From positions 14,878 to 78,877 of IMG/VR virus record IMGVR_UViG_3300009130_001805: a stretch of DNA of 64,000 nucleotides, one strand, 5' to 3'. The DNA is from a virus. Below are positions 3,590 to 47,614 of the stretch, one piece after another. Position 1 is the stretch's first letter, and every line of letters begins with the position of its first letter. A program made the translations under genes and the position numbers. The notes beneath the pieces were generated by a model. That model was not told the DNA's origin. It was given only the letters and a program-made list of their open reading frames with translations, and did no database searches.

Positions 3590-3618
3590 ATATTAGCACA
3601 AGATGAAAATCTTGTCAA
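3590..3618 (-). promoter_or_regulatory. Sigma70-type promoter, probably leaderless, for the ACP-recA operon
   Basis: TTGACA-17-TAATAT, 6 nt to ATG. Confidence 0.75.
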
Positions 3619-3626
3619 GCTTTTAA

Positions 3627-20349: not shown

Positions 20350-20736
20350 ATGCCAATATATCTCTACGAGCATCCAGAGACTCAAGAAGTTATAGAAATC
20401 GTTCAGGGCATGAACGATGATCATACTTTTACTGATAAAGAAGGTGTAGAATGGAATAGAATATATTCTCTTCCTCAGCTTGCTTGCGAGCAAATTAATA
20501 TCGATCCTTGGGATAATAAGTCATTTGTTCATAAAACTGGAACAATGAAAGGCAGTTATGGTGACCTCCTAGACTATAGCGCAGACCTATCAAAACAAAG
20601 AGCGCAAGAGAATGGGGGAGTTGACCCAATCCAAAAGAAGCATTTCAAAGAATACGAAAAAAGAACTGGCCAAAAGCATTTAAAAGACAGAAAGAAAACA
20701 ATTGAAAACAAAAACTTCAAAATAGACTTTGATTAG
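20350..20736 (+). CDS. FmdB-like protein lacking the zinc cysteines
   Basis: MPIYLYEHPETQEVIEIVQGM...W.RIYS start; TATAAT 5 nt upstream. Confidence 0.6.
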   Translation: MPIYLYEHPETQEVIEIVQGMNDDHTFTDKEGVEWNRIYSLPQLACEQINIDPWDNKSFVHKTGTMKGSYGDLLDYSADLSKQRAQENGGVDPIQKKHFKEYEKRTGQKHLKDRKKTIENKNFKIDFD

Positions 20737-30154: not shown

Positions 30155-30445
30155 ATGCAAGCAAGCGATTTTTTAGCAGATATCTGTAGTAAGAACACTA
30201 CGACTCTCTTTAAAGGTTTTCTACACTTAGTGGAAGATCTTAAAAGCGAGCACGACTCTAATTTTAAAAAACTTAAGGAGGCTTTGCCCGAAGAATATCA
30301 CAGCTTAATAAATCAAGCAGACTATTTTGACGACGCTAAAATGCAACATCTTAGAAAAAGAATTCTAGATGTAGGCAACGAGAGTTTAAGAAATATTTTA
30401 TACGAAGTTGAGAATTTTACTATAACTTTTGATTTTGGAAATTAA
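30155..30445 (+). CDS. Hypothetical helical protein
   Basis: 96-aa ORF after a TTGAAT-16-TATTAT promoter. Confidence 0.65.
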   Translation: MQASDFLADICSKNTTTLFKGFLHLVEDLKSEHDSNFKKLKEALPEEYHSLINQADYFDDAKMQHLRKRILDVGNESLRNILYEVENFTITFDFGN

Positions 30446-30467
30446 TATATTATAAGGAAAAAGGAAA

Positions 30468-31265
30468 ATGGCAGACTCAGATACAAAAAAAGAACAAAAA
30501 ACGATTTATAGCTTCTTGGTTGAAAAAGAAGAAGAAGTCGAGCAGACTGAAACCAAGAAGGTCAAAAACGAAGACACTGGTAAGACGGAAGAAGTCAAAG
30601 AGACCCGCAAGGTTAAAGAAAGCGTGCCCTATAGAGTTATCATCCGACAGCCCGGCAGAAGGGAAATGGAAGAAGCGGACATGGAGTACAGCATAGAGAT
30701 GAGTAAATGCATCAAGAACGGCATTCTCACAAAAGCCATGCTTGCTAAACAGTACAGTGATACAGGAGGGTTAATGACAGAAGAGGATGCTAAATTTCTA
30801 GACAGAAAATACGGCACCCTTGCAGATCTTCAAAATAAATTTACCAAACTTAGCGCCAAACAAAAGCGCACAGACGCAGACGAGCAAAAAATTAAAGAAA
30901 TTACAGAGGAGCTTGCTGCGACAAGAAAAGTGATTATCGACCTAGAGACAAACTACTCCTCTCTATTTAATCACACCGCAGATTCGAAGGCTCAAAACAA
31001 AGCCATCATGTGGTATCTCGTCAATCTCACTTCAATCAAAAAGGATGAAGATGAAGACGAAATGTTAGAGCCTTTATTTAAAGGAGAGTCTTTCGAAGAA
31101 AAGAAAGATTACTACTATGATCTTGAAGAGACTGGAGAAGACGAAATTTTTAATCTAGTTAATAATAAACTTACCACCCTTTTAAGTTTCTGGTATTTTA
31201 GCACATCAGCAACGAAAGATGACTTTGAGCGTTTAGAAAAAGACATCGAAGAAGGTAACGTTTAA
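30468..31265 (+). CDS. Putative tail assembly chaperone 1
   Basis: Acidic coiled-coil protein upstream of the TMP. Confidence 0.5.
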   Translation: MADSDTKKEQKTIYSFLVEKEEEVEQTETKKVKNEDTGKTEEVKETRKVKESVPYRVIIRQPGRREMEEADMEYSIEMSKCIKNGILTKAMLAKQYSDTGGLMTEEDAKFLDRKYGTLADLQNKFTKLSAKQKRTDADEQKIKEITEELAATRKVIIDLETNYSSLFNHTADSKAQNKAIMWYLVNLTSIKKDEDEDEMLEPLFKGESFEEKKDYYYDLEETGEDEIFNLVNNKLTTLLSFWYFSTSATKDDFERLEKDIEEGNV

Positions 31266-31278
31266 ACTCTAAAATCAT

Positions 31279-32304
31279 GTGGCTGAGTCAACTGAGCCAG
31301 AGAGCTTCTTTAGGAAGATCTTTAGAGATATATCTAGAGGCTTTTCTAAAGAAAAGCTAGGTAATGATATTATATACATAAAACATCTTTCCCAAGATGA
31401 TCAAGTTGAGCTTGATGATATTGAAGATGAATACCTAAAGGCTGCAAAAAAAAGAGGCCTACCATCCGAGCAGGAAATGCTTGACCTCCTAAAAGAACAG
31501 GGTGTCTGGGGTGATAAAGAAGAGGATGAGATAGCTGCAGACAGATTATTCATACAAACTCTTACTGACGCAAAAAGAACGCTTGTACTAAAGAGTCAAA
31601 TAGACAAGAAGAATCAACAGATTGAAGAAGCCTCAAAAGAGCTTGAAAAAAAAGTTCACGATAGATATCAAGTTTTAGGTAATACTGCTGAAAAATATGC
31701 AAAAGAAAAATCCAATGACCACTATATAATTCGTTCGTTTTTTAGTAATAAGAAATTAGATAAACCAATCTTTACTGAAAAAGACTTTTGGAGTCTAGAT
31801 GACCGCCACCTACAAAAGGCGGTAGTTAAATACAACTCATTTTTTTCATCTTTTTCTGAGGATAATATTAGGCATTTATGTCTACAGGATTTTTATTATT
31901 CGTATTTCCCTTTTTCTGAATCTCCGGTAGATTTTTTTGGGCAAGCGATTGTAAATTTAACCTATAATCAATTAAGGCTTATAGTATATACTAAAATTTT
32001 CAAAAATATCTTTGAGAGAAATGACGCTATACCTTATCAAATAAAAAAAGATCCAGACGCCTTATTAGACTTTGGCAGTATCTCCGAAGAAACCAAAGAA
32101 AAAATTAAAGAAAAAATGGATGTTGATGGTGCTACAAGTTTCGTTGGCGCAACGAAGGAAGACCTTGATTATCTTAACCTTAGGGAGAAAAAAGAAGGTG
32201 ATAGTGTAAGGACTGTATCACTAACAGAAGAGGCCAAAAAGAAAGGTGGAAGCTTAAACATGGAAGACCTAATGCGGATGCAGGGAATGGATGTAGGAGA
32301 TTAA
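31279..32304 (+). CDS. Putative tail assembly chaperone 2
   Basis: Coiled-coil protein immediately upstream of the TMP; GTG start. Confidence 0.5.
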   Translation: MAESTEPESFFRKIFRDISRGFSKEKLGNDIIYIKHLSQDDQVELDDIEDEYLKAAKKRGLPSEQEMLDLLKEQGVWGDKEEDEIAADRLFIQTLTDAKRTLVLKSQIDKKNQQIEEASKELEKKVHDRYQVLGNTAEKYAKEKSNDHYIIRSFFSNKKLDKPIFTEKDFWSLDDRHLQKAVVKYNSFFSSFSEDNIRHLCLQDFYYSYFPFSESPVDFFGQAIVNLTYNQLRLIVYTKIFKNIFERNDAIPYQIKKDPDALLDFGSISEETKEKIKEKMDVDGATSFVGATKEDLDYLNLREKKEGDSVRTVSLTEEAKKKGGSLNMEDLMRMQGMDVGD

Positions 32305-32357
32305 TTTAGTAAAGACGCTTTTTTCTGTGTAATTCCCCGTTGGAAAAAGGAATTAAA

Positions 32358-35300
32358 ATGGCACGCCCAGTAAGGATACCAGCACAGCAACAAGGATTTG
32401 AGAAGTCCGTTATGGACGCCGTTAATCGGCTGAACAGAAGCGGACAGCTCAAACTTAATGTAAACTCTAGATCTTTTACCCAACCTCTGGGGAAGATCAC
32501 TGCCAGCGCGGATGAGTTTACAAAGTCTCTCGAAGCTTCTAATGCTCGTGTTATTGCTTTCGGGGCTTCTGTAGGAATCATTAATGCGGTTAGCAATGCT
32601 TTTAAAAGTTTGGTGATCCAAACAATGGAAGTCCAAAAGCAAATGGCTGAAATTAACGTCGTTATGCAGACAGGAACCGAAGGGCTTCAGAAAATGCAGA
32701 CTGGGTTATTTAAAATAGCCAAAGAAACTGCTCAATCTTTTAGTGTTGTCACCGAGGCTGCTCTTGAATTTTCGCGTCAAGGCTTGTCTATGGAAAAAAC
32801 TCTTCTTGCTACAAAGCAAGCCATGATTCTTACTAGAATTACAGCTCTGGATGCTGCCGAAGCTGTAAAAGGTCTTACTGCTGCGGTCAATGGATTTGTA
32901 GATGCAGGCATTAGCCACACTCAAGTTGTTAACAAAATGTCTGCTGTCGATGTTAATTTCGCAGTCAGTACGGAAGATTTAATTCACGGTCTTGAGCGAG
33001 CTGGAGCTGTTGCTCAGGACGCTAAAGTAAATTTTGATGAGCTAATGGGCGCCATTACTGCTGCGCAGCAAATAACCGCTCGAGGTGGTAATGTAATAGG
33101 TAACTCATTTAAAACTATTTTTACCCGTATACAAAGAAGCTCCACAATAAACCGACTAGAAGAGCTTGGCATCGCTGTTAAAGATCTGGAGGGTCGTACG
33201 CTTCCTGCGATGAAAATACTAAAGGAGCTTGCTATAACATATGACGGCTTAGCAGATTCAACAAAAGCTGCTGTAGCCGAGCAAGTCGGTGGGGTTTTCC
33301 AGATTAACATTTTAAAAGCTGCCCTTAAAGACCTTGGCAGGGAAAATAGCGTATTCGCTAGAGCTACAGAAATATCTAATAGAGCTACAGATGAAGCCAC
33401 AAAGAAAAATGAAGCCTTAAATAAGACTCTTTCAGCTCTTGCGGCCCAAACAGGCACATCAATCCAGCAGCTTTCAGAAGCTATTGGAAAGCTCTCAATG
33501 GGAGGAGGAATTGAAAAAGTTTTAAAAACTATCAATACTATCGCAGAAGGAATGTTCAAAGGCATAGAGTCTGAAGGCATTGGTGGAGATCTAGCTAGAG
33601 GACTGCTAAAAGGTATGGGCAATATACTTTCTGGGCCCGGATTAATACTTGTGGGCGGCATGTTTGTTAAACTATTTGGTGAGGTTACAAAGTTTGCCAC
33701 AAAAAGTATGGCTAACATTATTGGGATTACCACTCAAAAGCAAAAACAAAAAGCGGTAGAAGAAGCGATCCTTAAGGTTATGATGGAAAATGAAGGCATT
33801 GAAGCTTCATTGCTTGCGATGGGTAAAAACAGAGTTCTGCAAGAAGAGCATGTACTGAAACTTATAAAACAGCAAGCAGCTGCTGCTCGAGAAAGAGCTG
33901 CTATAGCTGCGGCAGTTGCCCCGGGCCTAGTTAGGTCTGGAGTTAAAGGGCCTAGTCTTTCAATTAAGGGTGGCGCTGCTGGAGGAATCATTCCAGCTTC
34001 TGAAAGAAATGCAGAGAGAAAAGGCGCAATATCAGCTGGATACTCTCCCGGAAAAGTTTCTTCTACAAAAATAAAAGGAGTTGGAGATGTCGTATATAAC
34101 AAAGCTGAATCGATAAAAGAATTTCCGGGTATGCAGCAAAAGGCTATCATGCCTCCAGAGTCTAGCAGAGCTGGCTCTAAATATGCAAAAGCGTTCAAGA
34201 AAGCTCATGGATTTGACCCCTATGCGCCATCAGGCTTTATTCCTAATTATGGAATTGTTGGCGCTCGTGGCTCAGCTTCACTAGCTTTATCCAGAACAAA
34301 TATGGTGACCCATGGAACCGGGCGAGGGCAAAATACTCGTGCCATGGACAAGAAGTATGGAGAAAGCGGAGAAAAGTTATTTGCAACAGAGACTGCTAGA
34401 TTTGTAAATAAAAACACTCCAGAAGAAAAAAGAAACCTATTAGGCAGGATAATGACACGCTTGCTAGACAAAGGAATTGTTAACTTTACTCGCCCCGGAT
34501 ATTTTCAAAAAGAGTCTTTTAAAACAAATAGAAGAAGCTCCGAAAAAGATTTCGATCAATTCGAGAGGCATATGGTCAAACAATTATCTAGCGAAGGATA
34601 TAAAAGCACAGGTAGAGTTATAGATCCCAAAACAAGAAAAGTCGAAGCAGGAAACAATCAATACCCTCAAGATGCTTTTGCCAAAGGCAAGGTTCCTCGA
34701 GAATTTAAAATTAATAGAATTGACGAGAAAGACATATTAAGTAAGTCAATAAGAAGGACTACCGATCTCGACCCTCAAGACATCCTTAATGGCAAATATA
34801 CAAGGGGAGATATTACAAAAGGCAATGAATTTATACAAGTCTTAAGAAATAACTTCGGCCCAAGCTCAGGCAATCACGATGAAATCTTAATGGGTTTAGT
34901 AAACAAGTTTCAAAAGTCTAACCTAGATTCAGCTTTGAATTTATTACGCCAGAAAAAGATTGATGTTCCCGCTGGAGAAGAAGCTTACACTGCCGCTATT
35001 CATGGCTTACATCGGGGCTTTATTCCTAACTATATTGGAAGAAGGCGTATGCCGTCAAAAGCGCATCTCGAAAAAGCAAAAAAATCTATAGATATATACA
35101 GAAAGCTTACATTAAGCAGAAAAAGATCAAGAGACTACGACGGGAACCTTGCCACAGAAATTAGTAATGCTTGGGGACTTAAAGACCCAACTCACTCTAC
35201 AATAGTAAAAACTTTCGGAAGGATTAAAACCGATAAGTCGGCCCACAAAACTGTCAACGAGGAAGTTCTTGACATAATGGCAAACCCCGCAAAATATAAA

Positions 35301-38300
35301 GACCTTTTTAAGAAAAATAATTTACCTGCACCAGACTGGTCGGCGAGCCAAGGCAAATCTGCACTAAACCTTTTTACAAAAGAAGGAAAATTTGGCACCC
35401 TAGATAAGGTAAAAATGGGCCAAAAGAGCAAGCTTGATGGAGACGACTGGGAGCAGACGGTAAGGGATATTTTTAAGAAAGGAATCAAATCTGGCTCAAT
35501 AACCGACCTTAATACTATTAAAAAGAATTTTCCTTTAGACTTCAAAGGTGACAAGGGATTTCTCGATGCAACTCTAAATGTTCACAAGCTGAGAGTTATG
35601 CACCATAAAATTGCGAGAACACTAGCTCAACAAAACCCCTCTGCACTTAAAAGATTACTATTAAAAGGAAAGGATTTTGATGGGGTTGAAGCTCTTGGAG
35701 GGTTGGCGGAAATCTCTAAAGTTTCTTCTGGCATTAGAAGTCTTTCTAGAATGAAAAATAGTCGCTCTTTATTCCCTGAAGGTAAATTTGTCGGAGGCGT
35801 CGGGCAATCTACTGAAGATTTTTCTAGAAACATGCAAAAATGGTATGATGGATTAACTCCTGCCCAACAGAGTACAGCTCAATCGTCCCAAATGAGTGGA
35901 TCTTGGAAGGTTCAATCTCCCCAAGAGTATCAAATGGCCGCAAGCGGGTTTGTGCCAAACTTTATTAGGATGATAAACCCATCAAAAGACAGAAGTTTTT
36001 TGCTTAAAATGTGGCAAGATAAGCTCAAGAAAGCAAAAAGCATTAGTCGTTCAGGCAAACCTAGAATAGAAACAGACCCTCAAGTTTCAAAACTTAACGC
36101 TGAAGCAAATCACATATGGGATCAAATACAATTACTAAAGAAGGGTAAGCCATATTCTATTCCTAATTTTGCAAACATATCAAAAATTAGAGAGCTAGCC
36201 AAGAGGGGTAAAGGTGGAGAAAAAGCTAATGCTCAAAGAATGCTAGAGAAGTTTTCTATAAAATCTAAAGGCATGTTTGATGATATGATTATTGATGATT
36301 TCTTAAGGGATCCAAAGATGTCATATAAAGGGCCTTGGGGGGACACAGTAACAGATTACTTATTAAGCAAAGGTTACGATAAAAATCAAATATTAAAAGC
36401 CTCAAAAAGTCCTAGTTCATATGCCCGCGCCGCAGGAGGTGTGATCCCAAATTTTGTCCGCTGGATTAAAAATCCCAAAGGGGGCAAAGACCTTCCCAGT
36501 CCAGATATAGATCCAAGAACAGGTAGGCCAAGCGGAATATACACCAGCAGAGATATCCACGAAATGAAAGCCAAAGGCTACATGCGAACAGACGAAAAAG
36601 GCTGGCACTATGTAGGAAAAGGAAAAGTTAAATCCGCAGAAGCTAAGATAAAAGAAGAGCGCCGTTTGATGGCCATGGCTACGATTGGCCTCAGGGGAAG
36701 CGGAAAAGCTTGGATGCATCCAAAAACAGGCAAAATGTATACTGGGTCCGACCACCAACAAATTGCTGCAGATAACGGCTTATTTAACAATGGCATGGTT
36801 CGTGACTATGTTCGAATAACAAAATCAGACCGCTCTCTTTACATAGATAAAAAAGGCCTTGATGTTAGTTCTGAGGCGATGGGTAAGCTTAAAAATATAG
36901 CTCAAGACGATTACTATAAAATCATAGAAGACCGAGGCATACTGGGCGAAAAAGTATTATTTGACCCAAAAACAGGACCCTTCTCTGGAGGACACGTTCC
37001 TAATTTCGCAATGGCGGATGTGATAAGAAAATATCAATCAAGAAAATCTTCCAGATTAAATAAAGATCAATTTAACGCTACAAGCGCTGCGCTAACTAAA
37101 TTTAATGCCGTTAATGGATTGTTTGCTCGTACGGCCTTAGCTGGAACTAGCAGAGTTAGACTCACTGAAAGAAATTTTAATAAAGTTAGGCAATTCATTA
37201 ACAGTAAAGAATTTAGACAATTAGACAAATTAACACAAAATAAAGTACTTGTCGATTTAAAATCTCAGTCCCAGTCTTTAGGATTGCCAGATGTTACTAG
37301 GGGCTACGGCCAGCATCGCAACCCTCTATTCGAAGGTCGAATTGCCGCCTCAAGCGGATTAATCCCGAACTTTTCAAACCCCCTTTCTCAGGCAATATCT
37401 AGAGAAAAAGCTGCGGGCGTGCCTGAAAACATGATAAGAATTTCTCAGTCTGACAGGCTTAAGGGGCCTAAAAACCCTAGTGGGCTTGCAGTAATAAATA
37501 CTAGAGATGAACCGATGGGGATAAATCAAGGTATCAATAGATCTATTTCAATGGGGATTGACCCTAAGAGCCATGGAGCAAGCCAAGGCGTTGTTCCTAA
37601 TTTTACAAATCCTCTTGCTCCCGGTAGCGTTGGACCCGCCGGCAGTCAGCTTTCAGATATATTAAAAAAAATAGGGGTATCAGGAAACCAATTAGTTTCC
37701 ATCCTTACTCAATTAACTCCGGAGTTTAATAAATTTAGAGCCAACTTAAGTTCGGGCGGTACAGCAGCCAATCAACACGCCAGAAAAGTTACCTCAATGA
37801 TTTCAAGTCTTGGGCTGGAAGAAGCCCAGACTAAACAGCTTATGAGGGAATTTTCTAATTTGGGCACCACTGCCAACACGGGGGCAAGCAAGCTAAAATC
37901 TTTCATAAGTCAGCTGGGCGCCAAATTAGGCCAAGGCCCACTTGGTCAAGCCGCCTCTGATGTAATGAAAAGCGGGCCAGTTCAAGCTGTAGCAGGTTCA
38001 GGCGGAATGTTTTCTATGTTCAATCAGGGCCTTCAAGGGAATGTAACTCCATCCACTTCTAGGGCCGGTCGAGCGGGGCAAGCTGTCAATAAGTTACATG
38101 GTAAAGTCTCAAGCCCGGGAATGCAAATGGGAATGATGATGGCTCCCATGATGACTGAAATGATGGCGGAGAGCATCAGGGGCAATAAACCAAAATACGA
38201 AAGAAGTAAAGCTTCAAGAGCAACGACAGGCGCTATATCTGGGCTCGGAGATATTGCTATGTATACAGCAATGGGAAGTATGTTCGGGCCTTGGGGAACG

Positions 38301-41300
38301 GCAATAGGAGCTGCGGTTGGCGCAACAATTGCATTAACAAAAGTTTTTAACGAAGCTTCATTATCACTAGAAGATATACAACAAAGGAACGCCAGTTACG
38401 CCGCAGAAATGCAAAAAGTCACGGGCTCCATACAGGGTTATGAAAAATCAGTTGCTGCAGTTAATCAAGCCAGAAAGTCAGGAAACTTTAACGCCACAGT
38501 AAGAGCTTCTCAAAATGAAATGAACGCCCGCGCAGATCTGAGATTGTCAATGGGCTCTAGCTTTGCGGATAAATATATAAAAGAAACTGATAAAAATAAG
38601 AAAGCAGAATTAGCTCTAAAAGCTTTTGATGCGCAGGCTGCAGTTTCCTCCCTAGCGTCCTCCGAAGAACTTATCAAAGGACTCTCAGAACAAGATTTAG
38701 CGGGTTGGTCCCTTGTAAACTTTGGCGGAGAAGCTAGCGATGATATCAGACAGGCTGCGAATGATAACAGCAAAAACGCACAAGCATACCAATCTGCAGA
38801 AAACTCAATGATGAGAGCGGGTCGAAACTTGCAATCACTTGAAGGCGTTCTAGATGACCGAGGCAAGGAAGAATTAAAAGACTTTTTTAACGACGACAGA
38901 TTCAACCGACTTGCAACGGGAACTGGGACAGGCCCGAGCTACTCGAACGACGTAGCTGAAGATATGGCAGAAGAACTCAGCGAATTAATGCTTAGGCTTC
39001 AAGGCAATATAGATGACGATATTGGAGGTGAAAACCTAGCTCTTATTCAAAAACAATTACGTGCATTTTCTGACACAATAGGAGATCTAGATGAATCAGA
39101 TGAAATTCAAGCTACCTTTGGCAACTTAAAGAAAGGTATGGATTTGCGAGTAAGAGAAGAGCTTGATCTTCGAAGCAAGCATGCAAGACAATTAATGCAG
39201 GAATTTAACCGCTTTGAAAGGCAACTCTCTGTGGTTTTCGCGGATATAACTCATCAATTTAAATCCATAGACATTATGGACGGTGCAATCTCTGCCGGGC
39301 AAAGACAGAGTTCAGAAATGATGATGAGGTCTGTTGAATCTACTGGAATGCTCGGACTAGAGACTCAAGCTAGGCTGCGCGGAAGTTTACAATCAGACCA
39401 GATTAGCTCAAAATACTCGCAAGAAATTTCTGGCGCTCGCAGAGACGCTCAATTAGGATTTTCTAAACAGTTAAGCGGCAAGAATTTTTCTGAAGCCCTA
39501 ACCGGCTCCCTAGGTGACCCAAGCAAATCAGGTAAAACCATGCTCCCTAAAGTGATGGGGGAATTTCTTAAAGACTCTAGTCAGTCTATTGAAGAAAGAG
39601 AGAAATTAATGCAGGGAGAAATTACAGACGGCTTCAAAAATTTTGTTTTAAATAGAACTGAAGATTTAAACTTTAAAGCATTAAAGGATGAAATTGAGAG
39701 TGAAGGTTTTTCTAAAATAGACAAGCAAATATCTGACTCTGAGGGGCTGCTAGCAAAATACAGGAAGGGTAATGACGGAAGGACAGAATTTCAAGGAGGC
39801 AAGTCCGAATCCATATATAGAAGTCAAGGAGAGGGCATGCCGGGAGTGGGCCAAGATCTTATAAATAAAGGAGGTACGGTAGCAAAAGATTTTGCATTTA
39901 AAGGAAGTGGGAGTTCATATGAATCGCTAAGTCATCTTTTCGATATTAAAGGTCAGGAAGGAAAAGGCTCTATAAATAATGCGAGAATACGAAGAAACTT
40001 AACTTTTACAGACACTGAAAAGGATTTAAACGACATTTCGTCGGGAGGAATAAATTATTTTAACGATACGATAAAGCATCTTATAAAAAAATCTCTTGGA
40101 TCCGACCCGAAAGTTGCAGGCTTTGAAAATGTAGACGAGATCAATCAGGCTTTTGATGATTTCATGCAGCGAAAAGTTACAGAGACGGCCACGATAGTAG
40201 GCGCAGGAGTATCCTACTCAGAACAAGGGACTTTAGATTTTTCTGATGTGTTAAATGATGAGATCAAGTCACAAGTAGAATCCATTAGGCAAAGCGCTAT
40301 AGACAAAATTAAAAAAGGGAATGAGCTGGATCAAATAAAGTCAATGCTTGACCCATCGAGCGATGGATTTTCAAAAGACATAAAAGAGATCTCAGAGTCA
40401 TTAAAAACGACAGATGTAGGAAAGGAGCTTTTTAAAAGTCTCGAAGAGTTGGACCGAGTACAATCTCTTTTGAAGCAAAGAATGGCCGCAGAAGAAGCTT
40501 TACTAAAACAACAGACTGAATTTGCTATTGCTCAAGCTGGGATAATGGACGCAAGCCAAGCTCAAATTAGAGAAGCACAAAGAAGTCTCTCAAGAGTAGA
40601 ATTAAATAATCAAGGGCAATTTGTTAACAAAGGAATAGAAGCTGAAAAAAGAGCTTTGAAGGCTGCCAATGCTAGAGAGCTTGAAATGTCAGCAGCTCAA
40701 GCTAATTATAATAATATAGGGCTAACATCTGGAAGCAAAGAGTTTCTTGCTACCCGAGCGGTAGAAGATAAACGAAAACTTCAAGAGCCAGCATTAATTG
40801 CAAAAGAAACAGAGATAGCATCTGAAAAAATTAATCAATTATTTACTCCAGAAAAATATGCTACACTCCTTCCTCCTGCTTTAGAGCTTGGAGAAGTGGC
40901 AAAAGAAAGAGCGGCTGATTTAGAGCGCCAGAGAAAAGACAATGAAAAAAATATTGAAATATTCAAGAGATCTTTCAGAACAGTCATGGGTGTCGCTGAA
41001 GATGCGGAGATTGAAGGCAAGGGAGGCGTTAAGGCTCAATACACAGAAGCATCCACGACAGACAAACCACCATCACAAGCCCAAACTGACGCATATAATA
41101 ATTTAATTAATGCCGAATCAAAAAGAGGTTTCTTAGCTGATCAACAAAGCAAAGCAGGAGGCCCACATACAAAAGTAGTCCTAGATGCAATGAACTCCTA
41201 TCAAGAGGATATCACTGCTTATAACGACTCATTCAAAGGTATTTCTGACGCTTTCAAAAATGCTCCACGCGACAATGAAAAAGACCTGAGTGCAGCCGTA

Positions 41301-44300
41301 GAAGGCCTGAAGGCTAGCATTGGAGAAGAGATATTAAAATTTTATAGCAAAGATACTGCATTTGGTACTAAAGATCAATTTCAAAATTTATTAAAAGGAG
41401 CAGGGGAGGGCACTGCTGACTATCAAGCCCTACAGGTTGCCAACAACCAATTCCAATCCAATAAAGAAGCCTTTATAACTAAAAATGGTGAAGCTAATAT
41501 TGGAAAATTGGGGGAAAATTTTGAGGATATGCTCAATGAAGCGACAACATCAGTAGCAAACCTCAGAGAAGCCTTCCAACAAGCGGGTAAGGATGCTTCA
41601 GCTGCGGAGAAAGAAATCGCCCTACAAAGAATCGCAAACGACAAAGCTGCTACTGCTGCTACAAAACTTGCGGCACGAACTAGATCTGTAGCAGACAGCA
41701 TGACCGATCTTGGTTCAGCCTTGTCCCACATTAATGAACTTAGCTTGCAATTCATACAAGCTTCCCTTGATACAGATATGGGTCAAGCGGGAATGACTTC
41801 CTCGCAGATCTCCAAGAGGCAAAGAGATTTTGATTTAATTCGCGAGGTATCACAAGGTCGAGACCAATTACAAAGACAAAGCAAAGAAGCCACGTCGAGT
41901 TTTATTAGCCAAATTCAAGGGTTAGACATTGACGATTCAATCAAAAAAGAATTTCTTGGCAATTTCGATAACAAAGAAACTAAAGCAGGGATTGTAAATG
42001 CAGAAAGCTTCAAAGCCGCTGCGGAAAATGTTCTAAGCAACACTAATTTTTATTCTGATGCAAAATTTGCACAAGGGGTTCCAGCTTTTGGTAAAAAAGG
42101 AGCCAGCGAGGAAGACATAAACAATTTCGCAAACAACACTTCCGCCCGAGAAGCGCTAAGAGCAGAAATTGAGAAGTCAACAAATGCTATTAAATTAAAT
42201 GAACAAACAATTGGTAGAGAAGTTTCTTATAGACAAAGACTTAATTCTCTATTAGATCAAAATGCTAGATACATGCAAAGCTTTGGGGCAGGAGTCTCTG
42301 GAGCAATGAGCTCAATTAAGGAGAGATTAGAAAACTTCCGCCGTACCGAAGGAGAAACCTTAGTTAGTTCGATGAACGAAGGATTCAAGAGAAATGCCAT
42401 GGGCGACTACGGAGAAGGAGAAAGTTTCTTTTCTATAATAAATGATCGCAATAGAGAGATCGTAGCCCAAAGAAATGCAGACGCTGCTACAAATATTGTA
42501 TTTGGAGACCAAATTGGAAAAACATTGGAGGCTTTTGGGGTTGAGGGTGCCGCTGAAAAATATGACATGGGCAAATTCTGGGACCCAGAAGGTAACGAGC
42601 AAAAGCGTGCAAACGAAAAAATGCTCACAAGCTTTAATGAAACAGGAAGCCTTGGAGACGACAGTCTAGATTTCTTAAGAAGCGATCTTTTAAGCTCAAA
42701 AGATATTCAAGCTGTAACCGCAGATAATACCCGTAAAATGGTTGAGCTACTTCAGAGCATGAAAGAGCAAGGTTTCGCGGGTGGAAATATGGGGGACGGC
42801 TCTACAGTCATGAGCCAAGAAACCGCCACAAAAGAAGGGCAGCAAAGAATGGTTGGGGCATTAAACAACCAAACAAAACAAGACGCAACAAACACAGACT
42901 CGCTCAAGAGCACTGTCACTCAATCAAGCAGTGATAGCGCAGGCGTAATTAGCACCATGCTTGGATCTGCGATTGGTACGTTTAAAAGCGTAAGCGGAAT
43001 TAATAACGATTTCCAAAGCGGGCAGTGGGGCGACGCAGGAAGAAGTGTTTTTGACGGAGCAAGGGCTGCTACTACAAAAGTCGGAGATTGGCTTGATGAT
43101 GATGAAAAGAAAGCTTTTCGCGGAGGATATATTTCAAGATTTAACTTCGGTGGGCGCGTTCCTCAATTTGGAGGAGATCATAATACCGATAATGTTCCTG
43201 CATTACTTACTGGAGGAGAATATGTTATAAGAAAAGATTCGGTAGAAAAATATGGAAAAGATTATTTTGAAAAACTTAATAAAGGATTAATCCCTAAAGA
43301 ATTTGAAGACGGGGGTGATGTCAAGAAGGCGGAAAGAAGCTGGCTTTCGAAGAAAATAACTAAAATGCAAAGTAATTTTTCTAACGAAATGAATCAGTTC
43401 AAAAACATGAAGCAGGGCATGGAGGCAAGCGAAGGAAGTTTTGCTAGCATGTTTGGAAGTGGCAAGACAAATCGCCGATCCAAAGTAAACATGGGTATGA
43501 CCAAAAATGAAGGTACTGGCAGTTTTTGGACTCAACCAAAAGTTTCTAAGGACGATTTTGGTAATGACGTGGTTGAGCTTAACAGTGATCTCACCGGCCC
43601 TGCAGAAACTGAAATGAACTGGAGTAACATTGGAAATGCAGCACAACAAGGTTTAAACTTAGTAGGTAACGTTGCTAAAGGTTATCAAAACTATAAACAA
43701 GGTAAAAAAAATAGAGCCGCCGAACTAGCCAAAGCAAGAGCGCAAGAAGACGAAAAACGTAGAAAAAGAGATTATCAGCTACTTAAACCTTTAGAGTATT
43801 ATGATATGGCTGCAACTCAAATTGATCTAGGCGGACTATCAGGAAAAAGTTCAATTGACCAAGGCAAGCTTAGGCTTTCTGCCGCAGCAATGACCGGACA
43901 AATTCAAGGAGATCGATACGGAACACTTTTAGTTAATGTTCAAAGAGCTACTCATCAAAATAAAATTAATGATAGACTTTTTGATATTGAATATGCAAAA
44001 CAGGCAGCCTACGCAAAAGCAGTTGATAAGTACGAAAAGAAAAAAATGATTGCTGATTCTCTGATTCAAGTTGGTGGGTCTATAGCTAGTTTTGCTGGAG
44101 CTGGACAATTCATGCAAGTAGCAAACATGACAAAAGATTTAGCGGGAGGAGCACAAGCTTTATTTGGAGTTCAAGACCGAAGCCAAGTAAAGCCAGCAAG
44201 CCTCAGTGAAGTCATGAAGCAATCCAAAGAAAGAAGAGAAGATTTTTCTGGCCCAGCAATGGATATCCATCAGTACGGAAGTTTTCAAAGATTGCAACAA

Positions 44301-45617
44301 AGATACGCAAATGTTAAATCTGGATCCACTAGTGGAGCAGATTTATACCTTGGAGGATTTGAGTTAACCCAACCCGGACAGAGAGTAAGAAACCCAGCTT
44401 TATATGGTAAGACGAGAAAAGAAAGACAAGGAAAATTTTTAGGAGGATTAATAAAGCTCGCCGGAGGCGGAACTGTTAATTATGACGCTTCAAGAGTTAC
44501 AAGGTCTTCTCGCCCCGATGTGGCTGGCTCAGAAAGGTCAGGAAGGGCGATGACAGGATATGATACAAAAGGTAGAGATATATATAACTCTTTTGCGATG
44601 GGAGGCCAAGTCCCGACACTTCAGAAAAAAGATATTTCTATTGGGCATGATTTAATAGATAGAATCTCTACCCCAGATAGCTTGAATCTTAACCTTGATG
44701 ACTTTGAGGTTCAAGAGGTGGATAATGCTTTTCAGCTTCCTGATTCTATTCTCAATTCTGTTTCTAATAAAGGTTCTGTTTTTAATCCCGCTATAATTTC
44801 TACGATGGCAAAAGGGTTTGACTATCTTGCCTCAAGAAAGCAAAAGGGTGGAGATATAACTGCCCCGCTAGACCCCATGGGAATGCTGGCGCTAGCGCTT
44901 GGCGGAGTAGTTAACTCTTCAAAAAAAATTGCATCTTCTGTTTTAGGTTTAGCAAAAGGAGGTTTAACAAATTTAAAAATCAAACCTGATCTTTCTACTG
45001 GGGTCACTGCTCACTTATTAAGTACCTACAAAAATAGTAATCGCCATGGCAAGGCAGGCGCAGACTCTATGTTCTCACAACTAGGAGCAACGATAAAAAC
45101 CGCAGGACTAAGACATAACAATGAAAATCAAACTACAGGCAAAATACAGAAATCTCACATCCTTAGCGAAAAGGCTCTCGGAGGCCCCATTGAATTACAA
45201 GCGCTAACAAAATATTCTTCTGGAGGCAATGTAACCGGAGGTTCTGGAGTAAGAGATGATGTCCCTGCTCTCTTATCTGAGGGAGAGTATGTTATAAGAA
45301 AAAGCTCTGCCCAAAAATATGGAGCAAACTTTCTCAACCAACTTAATGCGGGTACTAAAGCGGTTAGCAGATTTGCTGAAGGCGGGGCAGTTGGGGAAAC
45401 AGAATCTTCTCCGTCCATCTCTGAGTCTAAAGAAGTCACTCATAATATATCTCAGAATTTTACTTTTAATATTTCAAAAGATGGGTCAAGCTCCGAAAGT
45501 GAAGAAGGTGACGACATGAGCGAAAACGAAAGAGAAAAAGAATTTGGAAGAAGGGTGCGCGTAGCCTGCCTTAAGGTTATAGAAGAAGAGCGCAGAATTG
45601 GAGGCTTACTGCATTAA
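32358..45617 (+). CDS. Giant tape measure protein (~4,419 aa) with inserted cargo array
   Basis: TP901-type core (EAALEFSRQG...ELMGAITAAQ..TARGGNVIGNSFKTIFTRI), long helical body, two lambda gpH-like D.VPALL..GEYVIRK motifs; start set at ATG 32358 behind AAGGA. Confidence 0.9.
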   Translation: MARPVRIPAQQQGFEKSVMDAVNRLNRSGQLKLNVNSRSFTQPLGKITASADEFTKSLEASNARVIAFGASVGIINAVSNAFKSLVIQTMEVQKQMAEINVVMQTGTEGLQKMQTGLFKIAKETAQSFSVVTEAALEFSRQGLSMEKTLLATKQAMILTRITALDAAEAVKGLTAAVNGFVDAGISHTQVVNKMSAVDVNFAVSTEDLIHGLERAGAVAQDAKVNFDELMGAITAAQQITARGGNVIGNSFKTIFTRIQRSSTINRLEELGIAVKDLEGRTLPAMKILKELAITYDGLADSTKAAVAEQVGGVFQINILKAALKDLGRENSVFARATEISNRATDEATKKNEALNKTLSALAAQTGTSIQQLSEAIGKLSMGGGIEKVLKTINTIAEGMFKGIESEGIGGDLARGLLKGMGNILSGPGLILVGGMFVKLFGEVTKFATKSMANIIGITTQKQKQKAVEEAILKVMMENEGIEASLLAMGKNRVLQEEHVLKLIKQQAAAARERAAIAAAVAPGLVRSGVKGPSLSIKGGAAGGIIPASERNAERKGAISAGYSPGKVSSTKIKGVGDVVYNKAESIKEFPGMQQKAIMPPESSRAGSKYAKAFKKAHGFDPYAPSGFIPNYGIVGARGSASLALSRTNMVTHGTGRGQNTRAMDKKYGESGEKLFATETARFVNKNTPEEKRNLLGRIMTRLLDKGIVNFTRPGYFQKESFKTNRRSSEKDFDQFERHMVKQLSSEGYKSTGRVIDPKTRKVEAGNNQYPQDAFAKGKVPREFKINRIDEKDILSKSIRRTTDLDPQDILNGKYTRGDITKGNEFIQVLRNNFGPSSGNHDEILMGLVNKFQKSNLDSALNLLRQKKIDVPAGEEAYTAAIHGLHRGFIPNYIGRRRMPSKAHLEKAKKSIDIYRKLTLSRKRSRDYDGNLATEISNAWGLKDPTHSTIVKTFGRIKTDKSAHKTVNEEVLDIMANPAKYKDLFKKNNLPAPDWSASQGKSALNLFTKEGKFGTLDKVKMGQKSKLDGDDWEQTVRDIFKKGIKSGSITDLNTIKKNFPLDFKGDKGFLDATLNVHKLRVMHHKIARTLAQQNPSALKRLLLKGKDFDGVEALGGLAEISKVSSGIRSLSRMKNSRSLFPEGKFVGGVGQSTEDFSRNMQKWYDGLTPAQQSTAQSSQMSGSWKVQSPQEYQMAASGFVPNFIRMINPSKDRSFLLKMWQDKLKKAKSISRSGKPRIETDPQVSKLNAEANHIWDQIQLLKKGKPYSIPNFANISKIRELAKRGKGGEKANAQRMLEKFSIKSKGMFDDMIIDDFLRDPKMSYKGPWGDTVTDYLLSKGYDKNQILKASKSPSSYARAAGGVIPNFVRWIKNPKGGKDLPSPDIDPRTGRPSGIYTSRDIHEMKAKGYMRTDEKGWHYVGKGKVKSAEAKIKEERRLMAMATIGLRGSGKAWMHPKTGKMYTGSDHQQIAADNGLFNNGMVRDYVRITKSDRSLYIDKKGLDVSSEAMGKLKNIAQDDYYKIIEDRGILGEKVLFDPKTGPFSGGHVPNFAMADVIRKYQSRKSSRLNKDQFNATSAALTKFNAVNGLFARTALAGTSRVRLTERNFNKVRQFINSKEFRQLDKLTQNKVLVDLKSQSQSLGLPDVTRGYGQHRNPLFEGRIAASSGLIPNFSNPLSQAISREKAAGVPENMIRISQSDRLKGPKNPSGLAVINTRDEPMGINQGINRSISMGIDPKSHGASQGVVPNFTNPLAPGSVGPAGSQLSDILKKIGVSGNQLVSILTQLTPEFNKFRANLSSGGTAANQHARKVTSMISSLGLEEAQTKQLMREFSNLGTTANTGASKLKSFISQLGAKLGQGPLGQAASDVMKSGPVQAVAGSGGMFSMFNQGLQGNVTPSTSRAGRAGQAVNKLHGKVSSPGMQMGMMMAPMMTEMMAESIRGNKPKYERSKASRATTGAISGLGDIAMYTAMGSMFGPWGTAIGAAVGATIALTKVFNEASLSLEDIQQRNASYAAEMQKVTGSIQGYEKSVAAVNQARKSGNFNATVRASQNEMNARADLRLSMGSSFADKYIKETDKNKKAELALKAFDAQAAVSSLASSEELIKGLSEQDLAGWSLVNFGGEASDDIRQAANDNSKNAQAYQSAENSMMRAGRNLQSLEGVLDDRGKEELKDFFNDDRFNRLATGTGTGPSYSNDVAEDMAEELSELMLRLQGNIDDDIGGENLALIQKQLRAFSDTIGDLDESDEIQATFGNLKKGMDLRVREELDLRSKHARQLMQEFNRFERQLSVVFADITHQFKSIDIMDGAISAGQRQSSEMMMRSVESTGMLGLETQARLRGSLQSDQISSKYSQEISGARRDAQLGFSKQLSGKNFSEALTGSLGDPSKSGKTMLPKVMGEFLKDSSQSIEEREKLMQGEITDGFKNFVLNRTEDLNFKALKDEIESEGFSKIDKQISDSEGLLAKYRKGNDGRTEFQGGKSESIYRSQGEGMPGVGQDLINKGGTVAKDFAFKGSGSSYESLSHLFDIKGQEGKGSINNARIRRNLTFTDTEKDLNDISSGGINYFNDTIKHLIKKSLGSDPKVAGFENVDEINQAFDDFMQRKVTETATIVGAGVSYSEQGTLDFSDVLNDEIKSQVESIRQSAIDKIKKGNELDQIKSMLDPSSDGFSKDIKEISESLKTTDVGKELFKSLEELDRVQSLLKQRMAAEEALLKQQTEFAIAQAGIMDASQAQIREAQRSLSRVELNNQGQFVNKGIEAEKRALKAANARELEMSAAQANYNNIGLTSGSKEFLATRAVEDKRKLQEPALIAKETEIASEKINQLFTPEKYATLLPPALELGEVAKERAADLERQRKDNEKNIEIFKRSFRTVMGVAEDAEIEGKGGVKAQYTEASTTDKPPSQAQTDAYNNLINAESKRGFLADQQSKAGGPHTKVVLDAMNSYQEDITAYNDSFKGISDAFKNAPRDNEKDLSAAVEGLKASIGEEILKFYSKDTAFGTKDQFQNLLKGAGEGTADYQALQVANNQFQSNKEAFITKNGEANIGKLGENFEDMLNEATTSVANLREAFQQAGKDASAAEKEIALQRIANDKAATAATKLAARTRSVADSMTDLGSALSHINELSLQFIQASLDTDMGQAGMTSSQISKRQRDFDLIREVSQGRDQLQRQSKEATSSFISQIQGLDIDDSIKKEFLGNFDNKETKAGIVNAESFKAAAENVLSNTNFYSDAKFAQGVPAFGKKGASEEDINNFANNTSAREALRAEIEKSTNAIKLNEQTIGREVSYRQRLNSLLDQNARYMQSFGAGVSGAMSSIKERLENFRRTEGETLVSSMNEGFKRNAMGDYGEGESFFSIINDRNREIVAQRNADAATNIVFGDQIGKTLEAFGVEGAAEKYDMGKFWDPEGNEQKRANEKMLTSFNETGSLGDDSLDFLRSDLLSSKDIQAVTADNTRKMVELLQSMKEQGFAGGNMGDGSTVMSQETATKEGQQRMVGALNNQTKQDATNTDSLKSTVTQSSSDSAGVISTMLGSAIGTFKSVSGINNDFQSGQWGDAGRSVFDGARAATTKVGDWLDDDEKKAFRGGYISRFNFGGRVPQFGGDHNTDNVPALLTGGEYVIRKDSVEKYGKDYFEKLNKGLIPKEFEDGGDVKKAERSWLSKKITKMQSNFSNEMNQFKNMKQGMEASEGSFASMFGSGKTNRRSKVNMGMTKNEGTGSFWTQPKVSKDDFGNDVVELNSDLTGPAETEMNWSNIGNAAQQGLNLVGNVAKGYQNYKQGKKNRAAELAKARAQEDEKRRKRDYQLLKPLEYYDMAATQIDLGGLSGKSSIDQGKLRLSAAAMTGQIQGDRYGTLLVNVQRATHQNKINDRLFDIEYAKQAAYAKAVDKYEKKKMIADSLIQVGGSIASFAGAGQFMQVANMTKDLAGGAQALFGVQDRSQVKPASLSEVMKQSKERREDFSGPAMDIHQYGSFQRLQQRYANVKSGSTSGADLYLGGFELTQPGQRVRNPALYGKTRKERQGKFLGGLIKLAGGGTVNYDASRVTRSSRPDVAGSERSGRAMTGYDTKGRDIYNSFAMGGQVPTLQKKDISIGHDLIDRISTPDSLNLNLDDFEVQEVDNAFQLPDSILNSVSNKGSVFNPAIISTMAKGFDYLASRKQKGGDITAPLDPMGMLALALGGVVNSSKKIASSVLGLAKGGLTNLKIKPDLSTGVTAHLLSTYKNSNRHGKAGADSMFSQLGATIKTAGLRHNNENQTTGKIQKSHILSEKALGGPIELQALTKYSSGGNVTGGSGVRDDVPALLSEGEYVIRKSSAQKYGANFLNQLNAGTKAVSRFAEGGAVGETESSPSISESKEVTHNISQNFTFNISKDGSSSESEEGDDMSENEREKEFGRRVRVACLKVIEEERRIGGLLH
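34233..37604 (+). repeat. Eight G-x-(I/V)-P-N-(F/Y) peptide repeats within the TMP
   Basis: GFIPNY 34233, GFIPNY 35016, GFVPNF 35946, YSIPNF 36153, GVIPNF 36438, GHVPNF 36990, GLIPNF 37356, GVVPNF 37587. Confidence 0.9.
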
Positions 45618-45622
45618 TTATT

Positions 45623-47614
45623 ATGAGCATTCGTTCTAGCTTAGGCTCTTATGAGCAGAGAGTGCTAATCAACAACACTTTTATACCCGGCGTAATAAGT
45701 TTTGATGCGTCATACCAAACCTCCGAAGTTCCTGTAAACGCAATCGGAAAAGGGTATGCCCAAAGCTTAATCGAGTCTCCTCCAGCAGGAGCCTTTAGTA
45801 TGACAAGGAACCTTATCTACGCCGACCCATTAATAAATTTTACAGGAGACAACCCAATGAAAATAAGAGTTGTTTATCCTGATGGCAGCAATGTCGGAGA
45901 TGGATCTTTAGACATCAAGGACGCCTATCTAGGCGAATATTCAGTCAACTGCTCAATAGGAGATTTACCTAAAATATCAACGACTTTCGATGTTTATGAT
46001 GAGATGGGGTCTACTATATTTTTTGATGATAATTATATAGACCCAAATTTTTTAAATCGCTCCGTATGGAAAAATGAATCAGTAGAAATCAATCCCGATA
46101 CTAATGGCTTTCCCACTGAAAGTCCCCGAGGATTAGCAGAGGCAGCTGTAATCAAATTTGGAAATGACTCGACTGGCAAATCAAGAATTAAAGCGCTCTT
46201 GCAAGGAGCAGCAATGCAAGACTCTTTTCTTTTAAGCTTTCAAGTTAAACCTATAACCACCCCATTAGGAAGCCAGCTATCTATATATCTAACTGGTTGC
46301 AATGCCGGCTCAAAAGGCAGGAAGGATATCGACATAAATCAACTCACTGAAGGGGAGTGGACAAAAGTTAGCGTAGAATTAGTTAGGGATCAAACAGACG
46401 GCATAAGTGCAAACCCAGATCTAATCATAGAAGGAACTCCGGACTTAAAGCTTGGATTATTTAATTTTAACTTTATTAAAACTGAAGAATTAGAAATTCC
46501 AGAGAAAGAAATTATTCCTACTATGGGAAGCATTCATGTATCTTGCGATGGGAGTGAAACAAACTCAGTCACTAGTTTCAACTATTCTATAAGCATAAAC
46601 CGAAAACCTTTTCATGTCGTCGGTGACCTCAAGCCGAAAGAGATAGAAACAATATACCCATTTGCTATTTCTGCAGACTTCACTATGGAATTGAACGATT
46701 ATGAAGTTCGGAATATGAAAGACGTATTTACCGGAAGGAGAGAAAGAGACGTCAATATCAAAATAAAAGGGAGGCAAAATACAATCAATGCAGAATCTGA
46801 ATTCTCCCATATAACAGATACTATGAGTAGGCCTGACAGCAGGCCATTTAATAGCTTACTTAATGGACTTACTTCTAAAGATTCTACAAATCTTTTTAGC
46901 GACACAAATTACGGTGGAACACCGATTCCAGTAACACCCAGTTCGCCAGCTAAAGGAGCTAGCGTATGGAGAATTTTTAAGAAACGAGCTTTTAAGAATG
47001 ATCGCTCTTTTTTAGTCGGCGTAATAGGCAGATCAATTAAAGATTATTTCGGTTTTGGAACTCCTTATACATTTTCGACTCATGCATGGGTTCCAGCTTT
47101 CATGAATGCAGGTAATGATTTTCAACAAATTACTGCGGGACAATATGATAGCTCAAGCTTGACTAGCATAGATCAAATTTTAGTTAAAATTGGAACTCCA
47201 GAAGTCATAGACATAGCAGACCCCTCAAGCGTTAATCCAATAAACAATTTTGACTTAGAATTTTGGCAGAGACCATCTATAAGTTTTACTCCATCCGCAA
47301 GCGATTCAACCACTCACCCTGACTTTTTTGTAATTTATTCTGTGGATCTTCCTGATACCCTTGACGCTTATATTTATCTTTCTTCTCTGCAAATCGAAAA
47401 CGCGTCAAAACCTTCTTCTGTTGGTGAAGACACAGTTTTCAATCTTTCAGTAACAAACGCTCAACTGGTCGGCGAAACTTTTGGTGGAGATTCAAATGAT
47501 GGATCAGTTGTTAATTTATCTTATAAAGGCTATATTAATAAACCCCCTCCAAAGTGCGTTGGCGGCGGATCAACAATGGAAAGCTTTAAAGAAATTAATT
47601 GGGACGCAGTATGA
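45623..47614 (+). CDS. Tube-fold tail tip/hub protein with inserted jelly-roll (CBM-like) domains
   Basis: GVISFDASY / SVTSFNYSISINRKP tube-like halves; inserts ending in WTKVSV and WQRPSISF...IYLSSLQIE. Confidence 0.55.
   Translation: MSIRSSLGSYEQRVLINNTFIPGVISFDASYQTSEVPVNAIGKGYAQSLIESPPAGAFSMTRNLIYADPLINFTGDNPMKIRVVYPDGSNVGDGSLDIKDAYLGEYSVNCSIGDLPKISTTFDVYDEMGSTIFFDDNYIDPNFLNRSVWKNESVEINPDTNGFPTESPRGLAEAAVIKFGNDSTGKSRIKALLQGAAMQDSFLLSFQVKPITTPLGSQLSIYLTGCNAGSKGRKDIDINQLTEGEWTKVSVELVRDQTDGISANPDLIIEGTPDLKLGLFNFNFIKTEELEIPEKEIIPTMGSIHVSCDGSETNSVTSFNYSISINRKPFHVVGDLKPKEIETIYPFAISADFTMELNDYEVRNMKDVFTGRRERDVNIKIKGRQNTINAESEFSHITDTMSRPDSRPFNSLLNGLTSKDSTNLFSDTNYGGTPIPVTPSSPAKGASVWRIFKKRAFKNDRSFLVGVIGRSIKDYFGFGTPYTFSTHAWVPAFMNAGNDFQQITAGQYDSSSLTSIDQILVKIGTPEVIDIADPSSVNPINNFDLEFWQRPSISFTPSASDSTTHPDFFVIYSVDLPDTLDAYIYLSSLQIENASKPSSVGEDTVFNLSVTNAQLVGETFGGDSNDGSVVNLSYKGYINKPPPKCVGGGSTMESFKEINWDAV

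Follow-up and report, generated by a model that had tools for sequence, protein, structure and literature searches.

A giant tape measure protein with a motif-fenced array of exchangeable cassettes in an uncultured phage lineage

The tape measure gene and its array

The stretch of DNA considered here (the window) is 64,000 nucleotides (nt) long and covers positions 14,878 to 78,877 of IMG/VR record IMGVR_UViG_3300009130_001805, a 78.9-kb viral record that is ~56% complete (CheckV). One gene of this uncultured marine phage encodes a giant tape measure protein (TMP) in which a series of unrelated, basic modules, each bounded by the same short peptide, lies between the N-terminal core and the ruler. 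The open frame (32340-45617, plus strand, 4,425 codons) opens with TTG at 32340; the likely start is the ATG at 32358, and the resulting protein of 4,419 amino acids (aa) is identical to database protein P0002. Residues of the core domain are numbered on the TTG-start translation (P0001). The core scores 77.5 bits against a cut-off of 33.2 for PF10145, and the first 470 residues match TMP families of PHROG (E 2.4e-50). Hydrophobic peaks are found at aa 425-435 and aa 4173, and the gene is followed on the same strand by lambda-like tip genes (gpM-like, gpL, gpK-like and gpJ-like). Judged by its sequence, the protein agrees with the TP901 family (PF10145) on every testable feature. Its parts, in order, are as follows.

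32358..45617 (+): TMP gene, 4,419 aa from ATG; PF10145 and PHROG TMP matches
32718..33293 (+): TP901-type PhageMin_Tail core, aa 127-318 (P0001), Pfam PF10145, E 1.6e-21
33984..34001 (+): motif 0, degenerate, GGIIPA
34002..34232 (+): m0, first frame module, 77 aa, family 4, very conserved among locus homologues
34233..34250 (+): motif 1, GFIPNY
34251..35015 (+): m1 cassette, 255 aa, family 22 (a divergent family 2), with a PD-(D/E)xK-like signature
35016..35033 (+): motif 2, GFIPNY
35034..35945 (+): m2 cassette, 304 aa, family 23, orphan domain
35946..35963 (+): motif 3, GFVPNF
35964..36152 (+): m3 cassette, 63 aa, family 7
36153..36170 (+): motif 4, YSIPNF, lacking G
36171..36437 (+): m4 cassette, 89 aa, family 3, common; array positions 1-7 in relatives
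36438..36455 (+): motif 5, GVIPNF; left breakpoint of the m5+m6 insertion/deletion relative to L002/P0004
36456..36989 (+): m5 cassette, 178 aa, family 24, rare
36990..37007 (+): motif 6, GHVPNF
37008..37355 (+): m6 cassette, 116 aa, family 6, isoelectric point (pI) 11.2, partly confident predicted helical bundle
37356..37373 (+): motif 7, GLIPNF; right breakpoint of the m5+m6 insertion/deletion; low-confidence linker in the model
37374..37586 (+): m7, last frame module, 71 aa, family 1, small predicted alpha/beta domain; 57 locus homologues
37587..37604 (+): motif 8, GVVPNF, closing the array; low-confidence linker in the model
37605..38339 (+): basic region rich in Gly, Ala and Met that includes a hydrophobic stretch; helices predicted by AlphaFold2 start here
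38340..43109 (+): acidic ruler, aa 2001-3590, pI 4.9
43110..45617 (+): C-terminal region with two copies of a G-G...D-x-VPALL-x-GEYV motif

A first-pass annotation of the window had reported that eight copies of a G-x-(I/V)-P-N-(F/Y) linker, preceded by a degenerate GGIIPA, follow the TP901-type core. The protein contains exactly eight matches to [IV]PN[FY], at aa 634, 895, 1205, 1274, 1369, 1553, 1675 and 1752 (nt starts 34239, 35022, 35952, 36159, 36444, 36996, 37362 and 37593), and their spacings of 783, 930, 207, 285, 552, 366 and 231 nt are those reported, as is their position past the confirmed core at aa 127-318. When the protein is shuffled 2,000 times, the mean count is 0.04 and the maximum 2. 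The glycine in the proposed linker is present at -2 in seven of the eight copies but is missing from YSIPNF (36153-36170). The degenerate copy is placed at aa 549-554 (nt 33984-34001) and is a true ninth copy: its G and P never vary within the family, and in many relatives the motif at this place is canonical.

In terms of the module families described below, the window architecture is m0(4)-22-23-7-3-24-6-m7(1). The segments between the motifs had been described as mutually unrelated and rich in Lys and Arg, and both descriptions hold: no pair of window modules reaches 80% probability in profile-profile comparison (hhalign), each module has a pI of 9.7-11.2, and the net charge of the array is +88. 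Homology between the two frame modules, m0 and m7, was considered and rejected at the same threshold (hhalign <80%). The first frame module has 58 locus homologues with 46-67% identity (mean column identity 56% in alignment A5) and no PDB or PHROG match. The near-invariant residues of the last frame module are R-E, A-G, N-P-x-G, V-x-N and D-E-P. An acidic ruler does resume after the array (pI 4.9 at aa 2001-3590), but ~240 basic Gly/Ala/Met-rich residues intervene. AlphaFold2 predicts helices after motif 8, and the PDB matches of the post-array profile are coiled coils only (alignment A4).

The C-terminal region of the TMP (window 43110-45617) has a repeat of its own, with copies at aa ~3598-3681 and ~4289-4382. 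Each copy consists of a G-G-rich stretch followed by D-x-V-P-A-L-L-x-G-E-Y-V-I-R-K...Y-G...L-N-x-G, and the copies cross-match each other's counterparts in L002/P0004 with 39-43% identity. Ahead of the first stands a PNF-like G-G-R-V-P-Q-F (aa 3603-3609).

Relatives, exchange of cassettes and predicted domains

A search with TMP residues 540-1790 returned 146 proteins of 2,434-5,299 aa, and architecture counts were taken over the 120 giant relatives among them. Every one of the 120 carries between 3 and 17 copies of the motif (median 7), and in most the first copy stands at aa 540-655, directly past the core. The consensus of 790 distinct instances is A-[SA]-x-G-[FL]-[VI]-P-N-[FY]-A. Glycine is found at -2 in 93% of these even though the search did not demand it; the residue following N is F in 85% and Y in 15%, and the next is A in 50%. 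The G, P and N of the motif are invariant among phages whose TMP cores are only ~25% identical. At least 511 candidate stretches in IMG/VR encode relatives of the TMP, including forms of ~2,000 aa with a minimal array (core, m0, one cassette and m7). Some relatives (L036, L037, P0096 and others) have 11-17 motifs and arrays of up to ~2,300 aa. In P0096 (aa 3047-4465) and P0103 (aa 2776-3782), PNF motifs also occur far downstream, so some of these TMPs may contain a second array within the ruler.

Among the cultured phages of INPHARED, the array is unmatched and the core alone has matches, with at most 29% identity. Within 185,579 species genomes the family occurs in ten metagenome-assembled genome (MAG) bins of mixed taxa and in no isolate. 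Seawater metagenomes from at least three studies of 2019-2024 contain this phage or strains with 96-100% identity to it (runs X1-X6; window 33000-38600). Other contigs in those samples have short matches to the core, m4 and m7 only and then diverge, as would be expected of mosaic relatives living alongside the window phage.

The 731 inter-motif segments of the 120 relatives fall into ~170 families, 93 of them singletons, arranged in 99 architectures. Most of the module families are unrelated by profile-profile comparison. Links that do emerge are those between family 22 (window m1) and family 2, the commonest variable cassette (hhalign 98.8%), a loose group of families 17, 18, 19 and 23, and a weak link of family 23 (window m2) to family 19 (85%). 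Fused cassettes are left where a motif has been lost (family 48 combines 2 and 10, and family 46 combines 7 and 1). Almost all relatives begin their array with family 4 (m0) and end it with family 1 (m7); the latter occurs in 83 of the 120 and closes the array in 76. Family 3, on the other hand, occupies array positions 1-7, and the close relatives P0118, P0119 and P0120 have permuted module orders. The homologues are thus not colinear: number, identity and order of the modules vary while the flanks and the two frame modules are conserved. This bears out the interchangeable modules proposed by the first-pass annotation. The total length of the TMP follows the length of the array (Spearman 0.85).

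The exchange of cassettes takes place at the motif. P0004/L002 is 88% identical to the window TMP over aa 1-1372; the alignment ends at motif 5 and restarts at motif 7, with a junction that runs from the end of m4 through G-G-H-V-P-N-F to the start of m7. Cassettes m5 and m6 are therefore absent by an exact, in-frame junction inside the motif. In L003, three extra cassettes stand between the counterparts of window motif 3 and m3. Over the family, 68% of 331 in-array ends of high-scoring segment pairs fall within 10 aa of a motif, compared with 12.8% of random positions, and the median distance to a motif is 6 aa compared with 40 aa. Over m1-m7, a contig of 3,966 nt from the marine metagenome of another study is collinear with the window and ~96% identical to it, so the present module order is stable within the population. 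A candidate joint (33438>37497, with 22 letters on its shorter side and 80% likeness) was set aside as a cross-matching sequence of a different phage.

The motif was also proposed as an anchor for recombination. The exchange points do coincide with it, but an anchor at the level of DNA finds no support, since the synonymous codons of the motif (CCT/CCA/CCG/CCC, AAT/AAC and TTT/TTC) are used in the same proportions as in the rest of the gene. The eight window copies have no extended nucleotide identity in common. Because synonymous sites of the motif vary like background, selection acts on the peptide and not on the DNA. The motif is confined to TMPs: G-x-[IV]-P-N-[FY] occurs in no other real open reading frame (ORF) of the 78.9-kb record and nowhere in the 402,074 aa of non-TMP ORFs from 80 related loci. 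It is therefore not the phage's general maturation signal.

Two stretches of the array were modelled with AlphaFold: m1 with its flanking motifs (20 sequences; predicted local distance difference test, pLDDT, 72.5; predicted template modelling score 0.74) and aa 1548-1850, which take in m6, m7 and the first part of the ruler (54 sequences). In both models every motif lies at pLDDT <50 between compact parts at pLDDT 80-95, m7 being at ~90. This suggests that the motif is a short linear motif in linkers that are predicted to be disordered, and the modelled stretches give compact domains rather than the plain helical TMP repeats that would have spoken against the first-pass annotation. The fold search of the second model gave no significant match; its helical tail swamped the search, leaving m6 and m7 effectively unsearched. 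In a PDB profile search (alignment A4) neither m6 nor m7 had a match.

Among the window's cassettes, only m1 has a signature like that of an enzyme. Residues D150, E160, K162, K174, S175 and R177 are invariant in alignment A2 (20 sequences of ~21-25% identity) and E114 is present in at least 90% of the 20. The resulting D-x9-E-x-K pattern, with an acidic-residue helix ahead of it, resembles PD-(D/E)xK nucleases, so that m1 has the catalytic motif of this superfamily and may be a nuclease. A PDB profile search with m1 found no match, fold searches of its model were not significant, and structure comparison did not recover a nuclease fold. In relatives, a staphylococcal-nuclease (SNase) domain is found within families 10 and 48 and a CI-type helix-turn-helix (HTH) within family 17; these two are the only domains of conflict type seen. 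The pI exceeds 8 in 90% of the 731 family modules, and since this property is common to unrelated families it looks like a requirement of the carrier and not of one function. The business of the cassettes is likely to be with nucleic acid, because of the putative D...ExK triad of m1, the SNase and HTH domains of relatives and the basic charge of all cassettes.

Most other cassettes resemble nothing annotated. When the whole TMP and each window module were compared with Pfam and PHROG, nothing was found past the core (two PHROG rows with weak scores, E 0.016 and 0.086, were left aside), and m2-m6 have no Pfam or PHROG family. For m2 and m5 there is no usable ESM Atlas match, m2 has only two matches among 1.84 billion representatives, both of them pieces of TMPs, and no protein shorter than 2,433 aa matches m2-m6, so that a suggested likeness of m4 and m5 to stand-alone phage proteins finds no support. 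Likewise, family 2 has no stand-alone relatives of 128-576 aa. A census of 93 cassette representatives gave 3 Pfam and 9 PHROG matches, among them DUF7178, PGDYG, RhoGAP (probably spurious), phrog_3842, phrog_419, phrog_4502 and polynucleotide kinase. No peptidase and none of the listed conflict domains, MPTase included, was found in the TMP (Pfam E <=0.1) or in the 93 representatives.

The array as a proposed carrier and possible readers of its motif

The reading favoured here, with moderate confidence, is that the TMP is a rack of exchangeable cassettes and that the tail probably brings a changeable set of proteins into the host. The rack would consist of independently folding basic domains of 63-304 aa, placed between the N-terminal core and the hydrophobic, coiled-coil ruler, framed by m0 and m7 and joined by disordered linkers with one motif of ~10 residues each. 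In this lineage the gain, loss, exchange and rearrangement of cassettes keep the reading frame and occur at the motif, which is retained by selection on the peptide. In siphophages the TMP occupies the lumen of the tail tube, its C-terminus being at the tip, and leaves ahead of the DNA. The array belongs to the head-proximal, N-terminal part, so the cassettes would leave the tube last, next to the leading end of the DNA. A lumen of ~4 nm would be too narrow for several TMP copies whose cassettes of 250-300 aa are folded, so these cassettes are expected to travel unfolded or loosely packed. The wall of the tail tube is electronegative, and the positive charge of the cassettes would suit either this wall or the binding of DNA. 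One conserved partner or chemistry might handle every cassette alike, both when the TMP is loaded into the tail tube and when it passes into the host envelope in advance of the DNA; because the tag is invariant, something conserved must read it.

Several points count against this reading. Delivery is surmised from the array's place in a TMP, passage of the large domains through the lumen assumes that they are unfolded, and the partner that reads the motif is postulated. Moreover, m2-m6 of the window match nothing annotated, and of the 93 module representatives only 3 match Pfam.

What reads the motif has two tentative answers of roughly equal weight. The motif may be a processing site, at which a gpK-like protease, another phage or host protease, or self-cleavage at Asn cuts at or near P-N|F, in which case the array would be a polyprotein that releases up to eight proteins after ejection. 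A conserved junction peptide between units, by which a polyprotein is recognized, is present at each cassette boundary; it is conserved on both sides of the putative cut (about P6 to P2') and, like protease sites, lies in linkers predicted to be disordered. The residue past N is only F or Y, and N-terminal F and Y act as ClpS N-degrons, so that the released units would be short-lived. The tail module also encodes a protein with JAB and NlpC/P60 domains (56927-57724), although proteins of the gpK type occur in all lambda-like tails whether or not the motif is present. For polyvalent virion proteins, cleavage into units following delivery has been proposed (PMC5512222). Nevertheless, no peptidase domain was detected in the TMP or the 93 cassette representatives, self-cleavage at Asn normally needs a structured pocket and not a disordered linker, and the motif is absent from every other virion protein. 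Equally tentative is the proposal that the motif remains uncleaved and serves as a docking peptide for one conserved partner. A host periplasmic chaperone or peptidyl-prolyl isomerase of the SurA or FkpA type might grip the linkers and ratchet the unfolded chain out, after which the cassettes refold, or else a phage tail assembly chaperone or the tube lumen might bind the motif so that the polymerizing tube passes non-helical cargo. That G, P and N are invariant despite TMP cores of ~25% identity speaks for a highly conserved partner, confinement of the motif to TMPs is consistent with docking, and tip genes of the lambda type indicate diderm hosts. A peptide from phage display, WEYIPNV, binds the P1 domain of SurA with a Kd of 1-14 uM (PDB 2PV1) and shares Y-I-P-N with [FLY]-[IV]-P-N-[FY] (PMC11401910). 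Additionally, genome injection by HK97 requires its TMP, PtsG and the periplasmic chaperone FkpA, according to work cited in PMC5099701. The likeness to the SurA ligand extends over 4-5 residues, however, and G or a polar residue stands in place of the first aromatic of Ar-x-Ar-x-Pro; it is a resemblance of sequence. In addition, the genome matches are MAG bins only and no co-varying phage partner was found.

Two further explanations are given less weight. The cassettes could be host-entry adaptors, or ruler filler that tunes the length of the tail, with the motif merely a flexible hinge. TMPs set the dependence on host inner-membrane proteins (PtsG in the case of HK97), high turnover is typical of host-range determinants, most cassettes belong to no recognizable catalytic family, and array length tracks TMP length. 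Such an explanation is unlikely, as a hinge needs no invariant G-x-x-P-N-F, the cassettes appear compact rather than extended helices, m1 has invariant polar residues in an enzyme-like pattern, relatives contain SNase and HTH cassettes, and the uniform basic charge is left unexplained. That the motif is mainly a DNA-level anchor for cassette exchange is very improbable and is disfavoured: breakpoints of insertions, deletions and replacements do coincide with the motif, but the background proportions of its synonymous codons and the lack of extended nucleotide identity among the window copies speak for the peptide, and the in-frame survivors of any recombination would map to the linker too. Other candidate mechanisms were rejected. 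Inteins do not fit because F or Y and then, in half of the instances, A follows the Asn, there is no Cys, Ser or Thr nucleophile after it, and the cassettes begin with varied residues; skipping of the 2A type involves a different motif and eukaryotic ribosomes; and a general virion maturation site would not be absent from all other proteins. Overall, the interpretation in the first-pass annotation is partly supported: its interchangeable modules are borne out, its recombination anchor finds no support at the level of DNA, and cleavage, injection and effector activity stay putative.

The rack reading can be extended, speculatively, to propose that the PNF peptide is a universal handling tag. 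Any basic domain between two tags would be threaded unfolded and then either gripped by a chaperone or cut at N|F, so that one protein could deliver up to ~16 exchangeable effectors, many from families seen nowhere else.

Single activities carried by TMPs are already known. The 5,002-aa TMP gp96 of Thermus phage P23-45 has an N-terminal portion that is a working virion RNA polymerase (PMC10770324). It resembles the window TMP in being a giant siphophage TMP with an N-terminal, non-ruler domain thought to act at or after ejection beside the entering DNA, and it serves as a precedent for an enzyme that works after ejection while fused to the N-terminus of a giant TMP. It differs in having one fixed enzyme, with neither a variable array nor a repeated fencing motif; the window TMP contains no D-x-D-x-D signature. 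Sle1-type effectors of actinobacterial contractile injection systems (PMC13277306) are likewise TMP-derived carriers with an exchangeable functional domain inside a tail-like tube, but they have a single C-terminal functional domain in a contractile bacterial nanomachine and no motif-delimited array.

Embedded motifs are also found in other TP901-family TMPs, namely the wall-hydrolase motifs of the mycobacteriophage TM4 type and pb2 of T5. These share with the window TMP the PF10145 core, the place in the tail module and an accessory activity borne by the TMP at entry. They have one or two known muralytic motifs, whereas the window has seven cassettes and its relatives up to ~16, mostly of families without known function. 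The polyvalent proteins of phages and conjugative elements, which contain 2-15 unrelated domains and are proposed to enter with the DNA and act in conflicts (Iyer et al. 2017; PMC5512222, a paper that contains no mention of TMPs), are similar in that many unrelated domains share one polypeptide and architectures are shuffled between relatives, as is the case here. Theirs are recognizable conflict domains with a pervasive MPTase, whereas in the array no MPTase was found, most domains have no known family, and a motif fences each unit. No published description of such a motif array was found in literature searches. What is new is the grammar of frame modules, the fencing peptide at every junction, exchange exactly at the peptide, uniformly basic cargo, and many families seen only here.

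TMPs are usually regarded as rulers and channel formers, and here a large uncultured lineage, with at least 511 IMG/VR contigs from marine and other environments, appears to use the TMP as a carrier. The carrier follows a simple grammar, in which a frame module is followed by alternating tag and cassette and then by a second frame module. If the cassettes are delivered, they would constitute a new and very diverse reservoir of effectors for the first minute of infection, with ~170 module families in 120 proteins and most of them without relatives outside these TMPs. Delivery would also mean that the reader of a defined short peptide, whether protease, chaperone or tube, is directly searchable, and that nature supplies a design rule by which foreign proteins could be loaded into the tail of a siphophage. 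That all cassettes are basic also suggests a physical rule governing the cargo that a tail tube can carry.

The surrounding tail module

The genes downstream of the TMP form a lambda-like tip module.

49965-53072 (+): gpM-like minor tail gene
55821-56927 (+): gpL gene
56927-57724 (+): gpK-like gene with JAB/MPN and NlpC/P60 domains
from 60842 (+): gpJ-like gene

No peptidase-like gene other than the gpK-like one was seen near the TMP, and its product is a candidate for any processing of that protein. The gpM-like protein is inflated to 1,035 aa, with a Phage_min_tail domain that covers only aa 614-714. Three ORFs just upstream of the TMP (30155-32304; 96, 265 and 341 aa), among which the tail tube and assembly chaperone are expected, have no Pfam or PHROG match. 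The same is true of the 663-aa ORF immediately after the TMP (45623-47614). Between the TMP and the gpM-like gene, 47599-49965 encodes a 788-aa protein with Laminin_G_3 (ConA-like lectin) and CBM5/12 domains, a carbohydrate-binding protein being unusual at this place among lambda-like tail genes. A probable tail fibre or spike of 1,274 aa is encoded on the opposite strand, upstream of the tail module, at 20733-24557 (-); it combines InlB B-repeat (Flg_new_2) domains with an intramolecular chaperone, Peptidase_S74, at its C-terminus.

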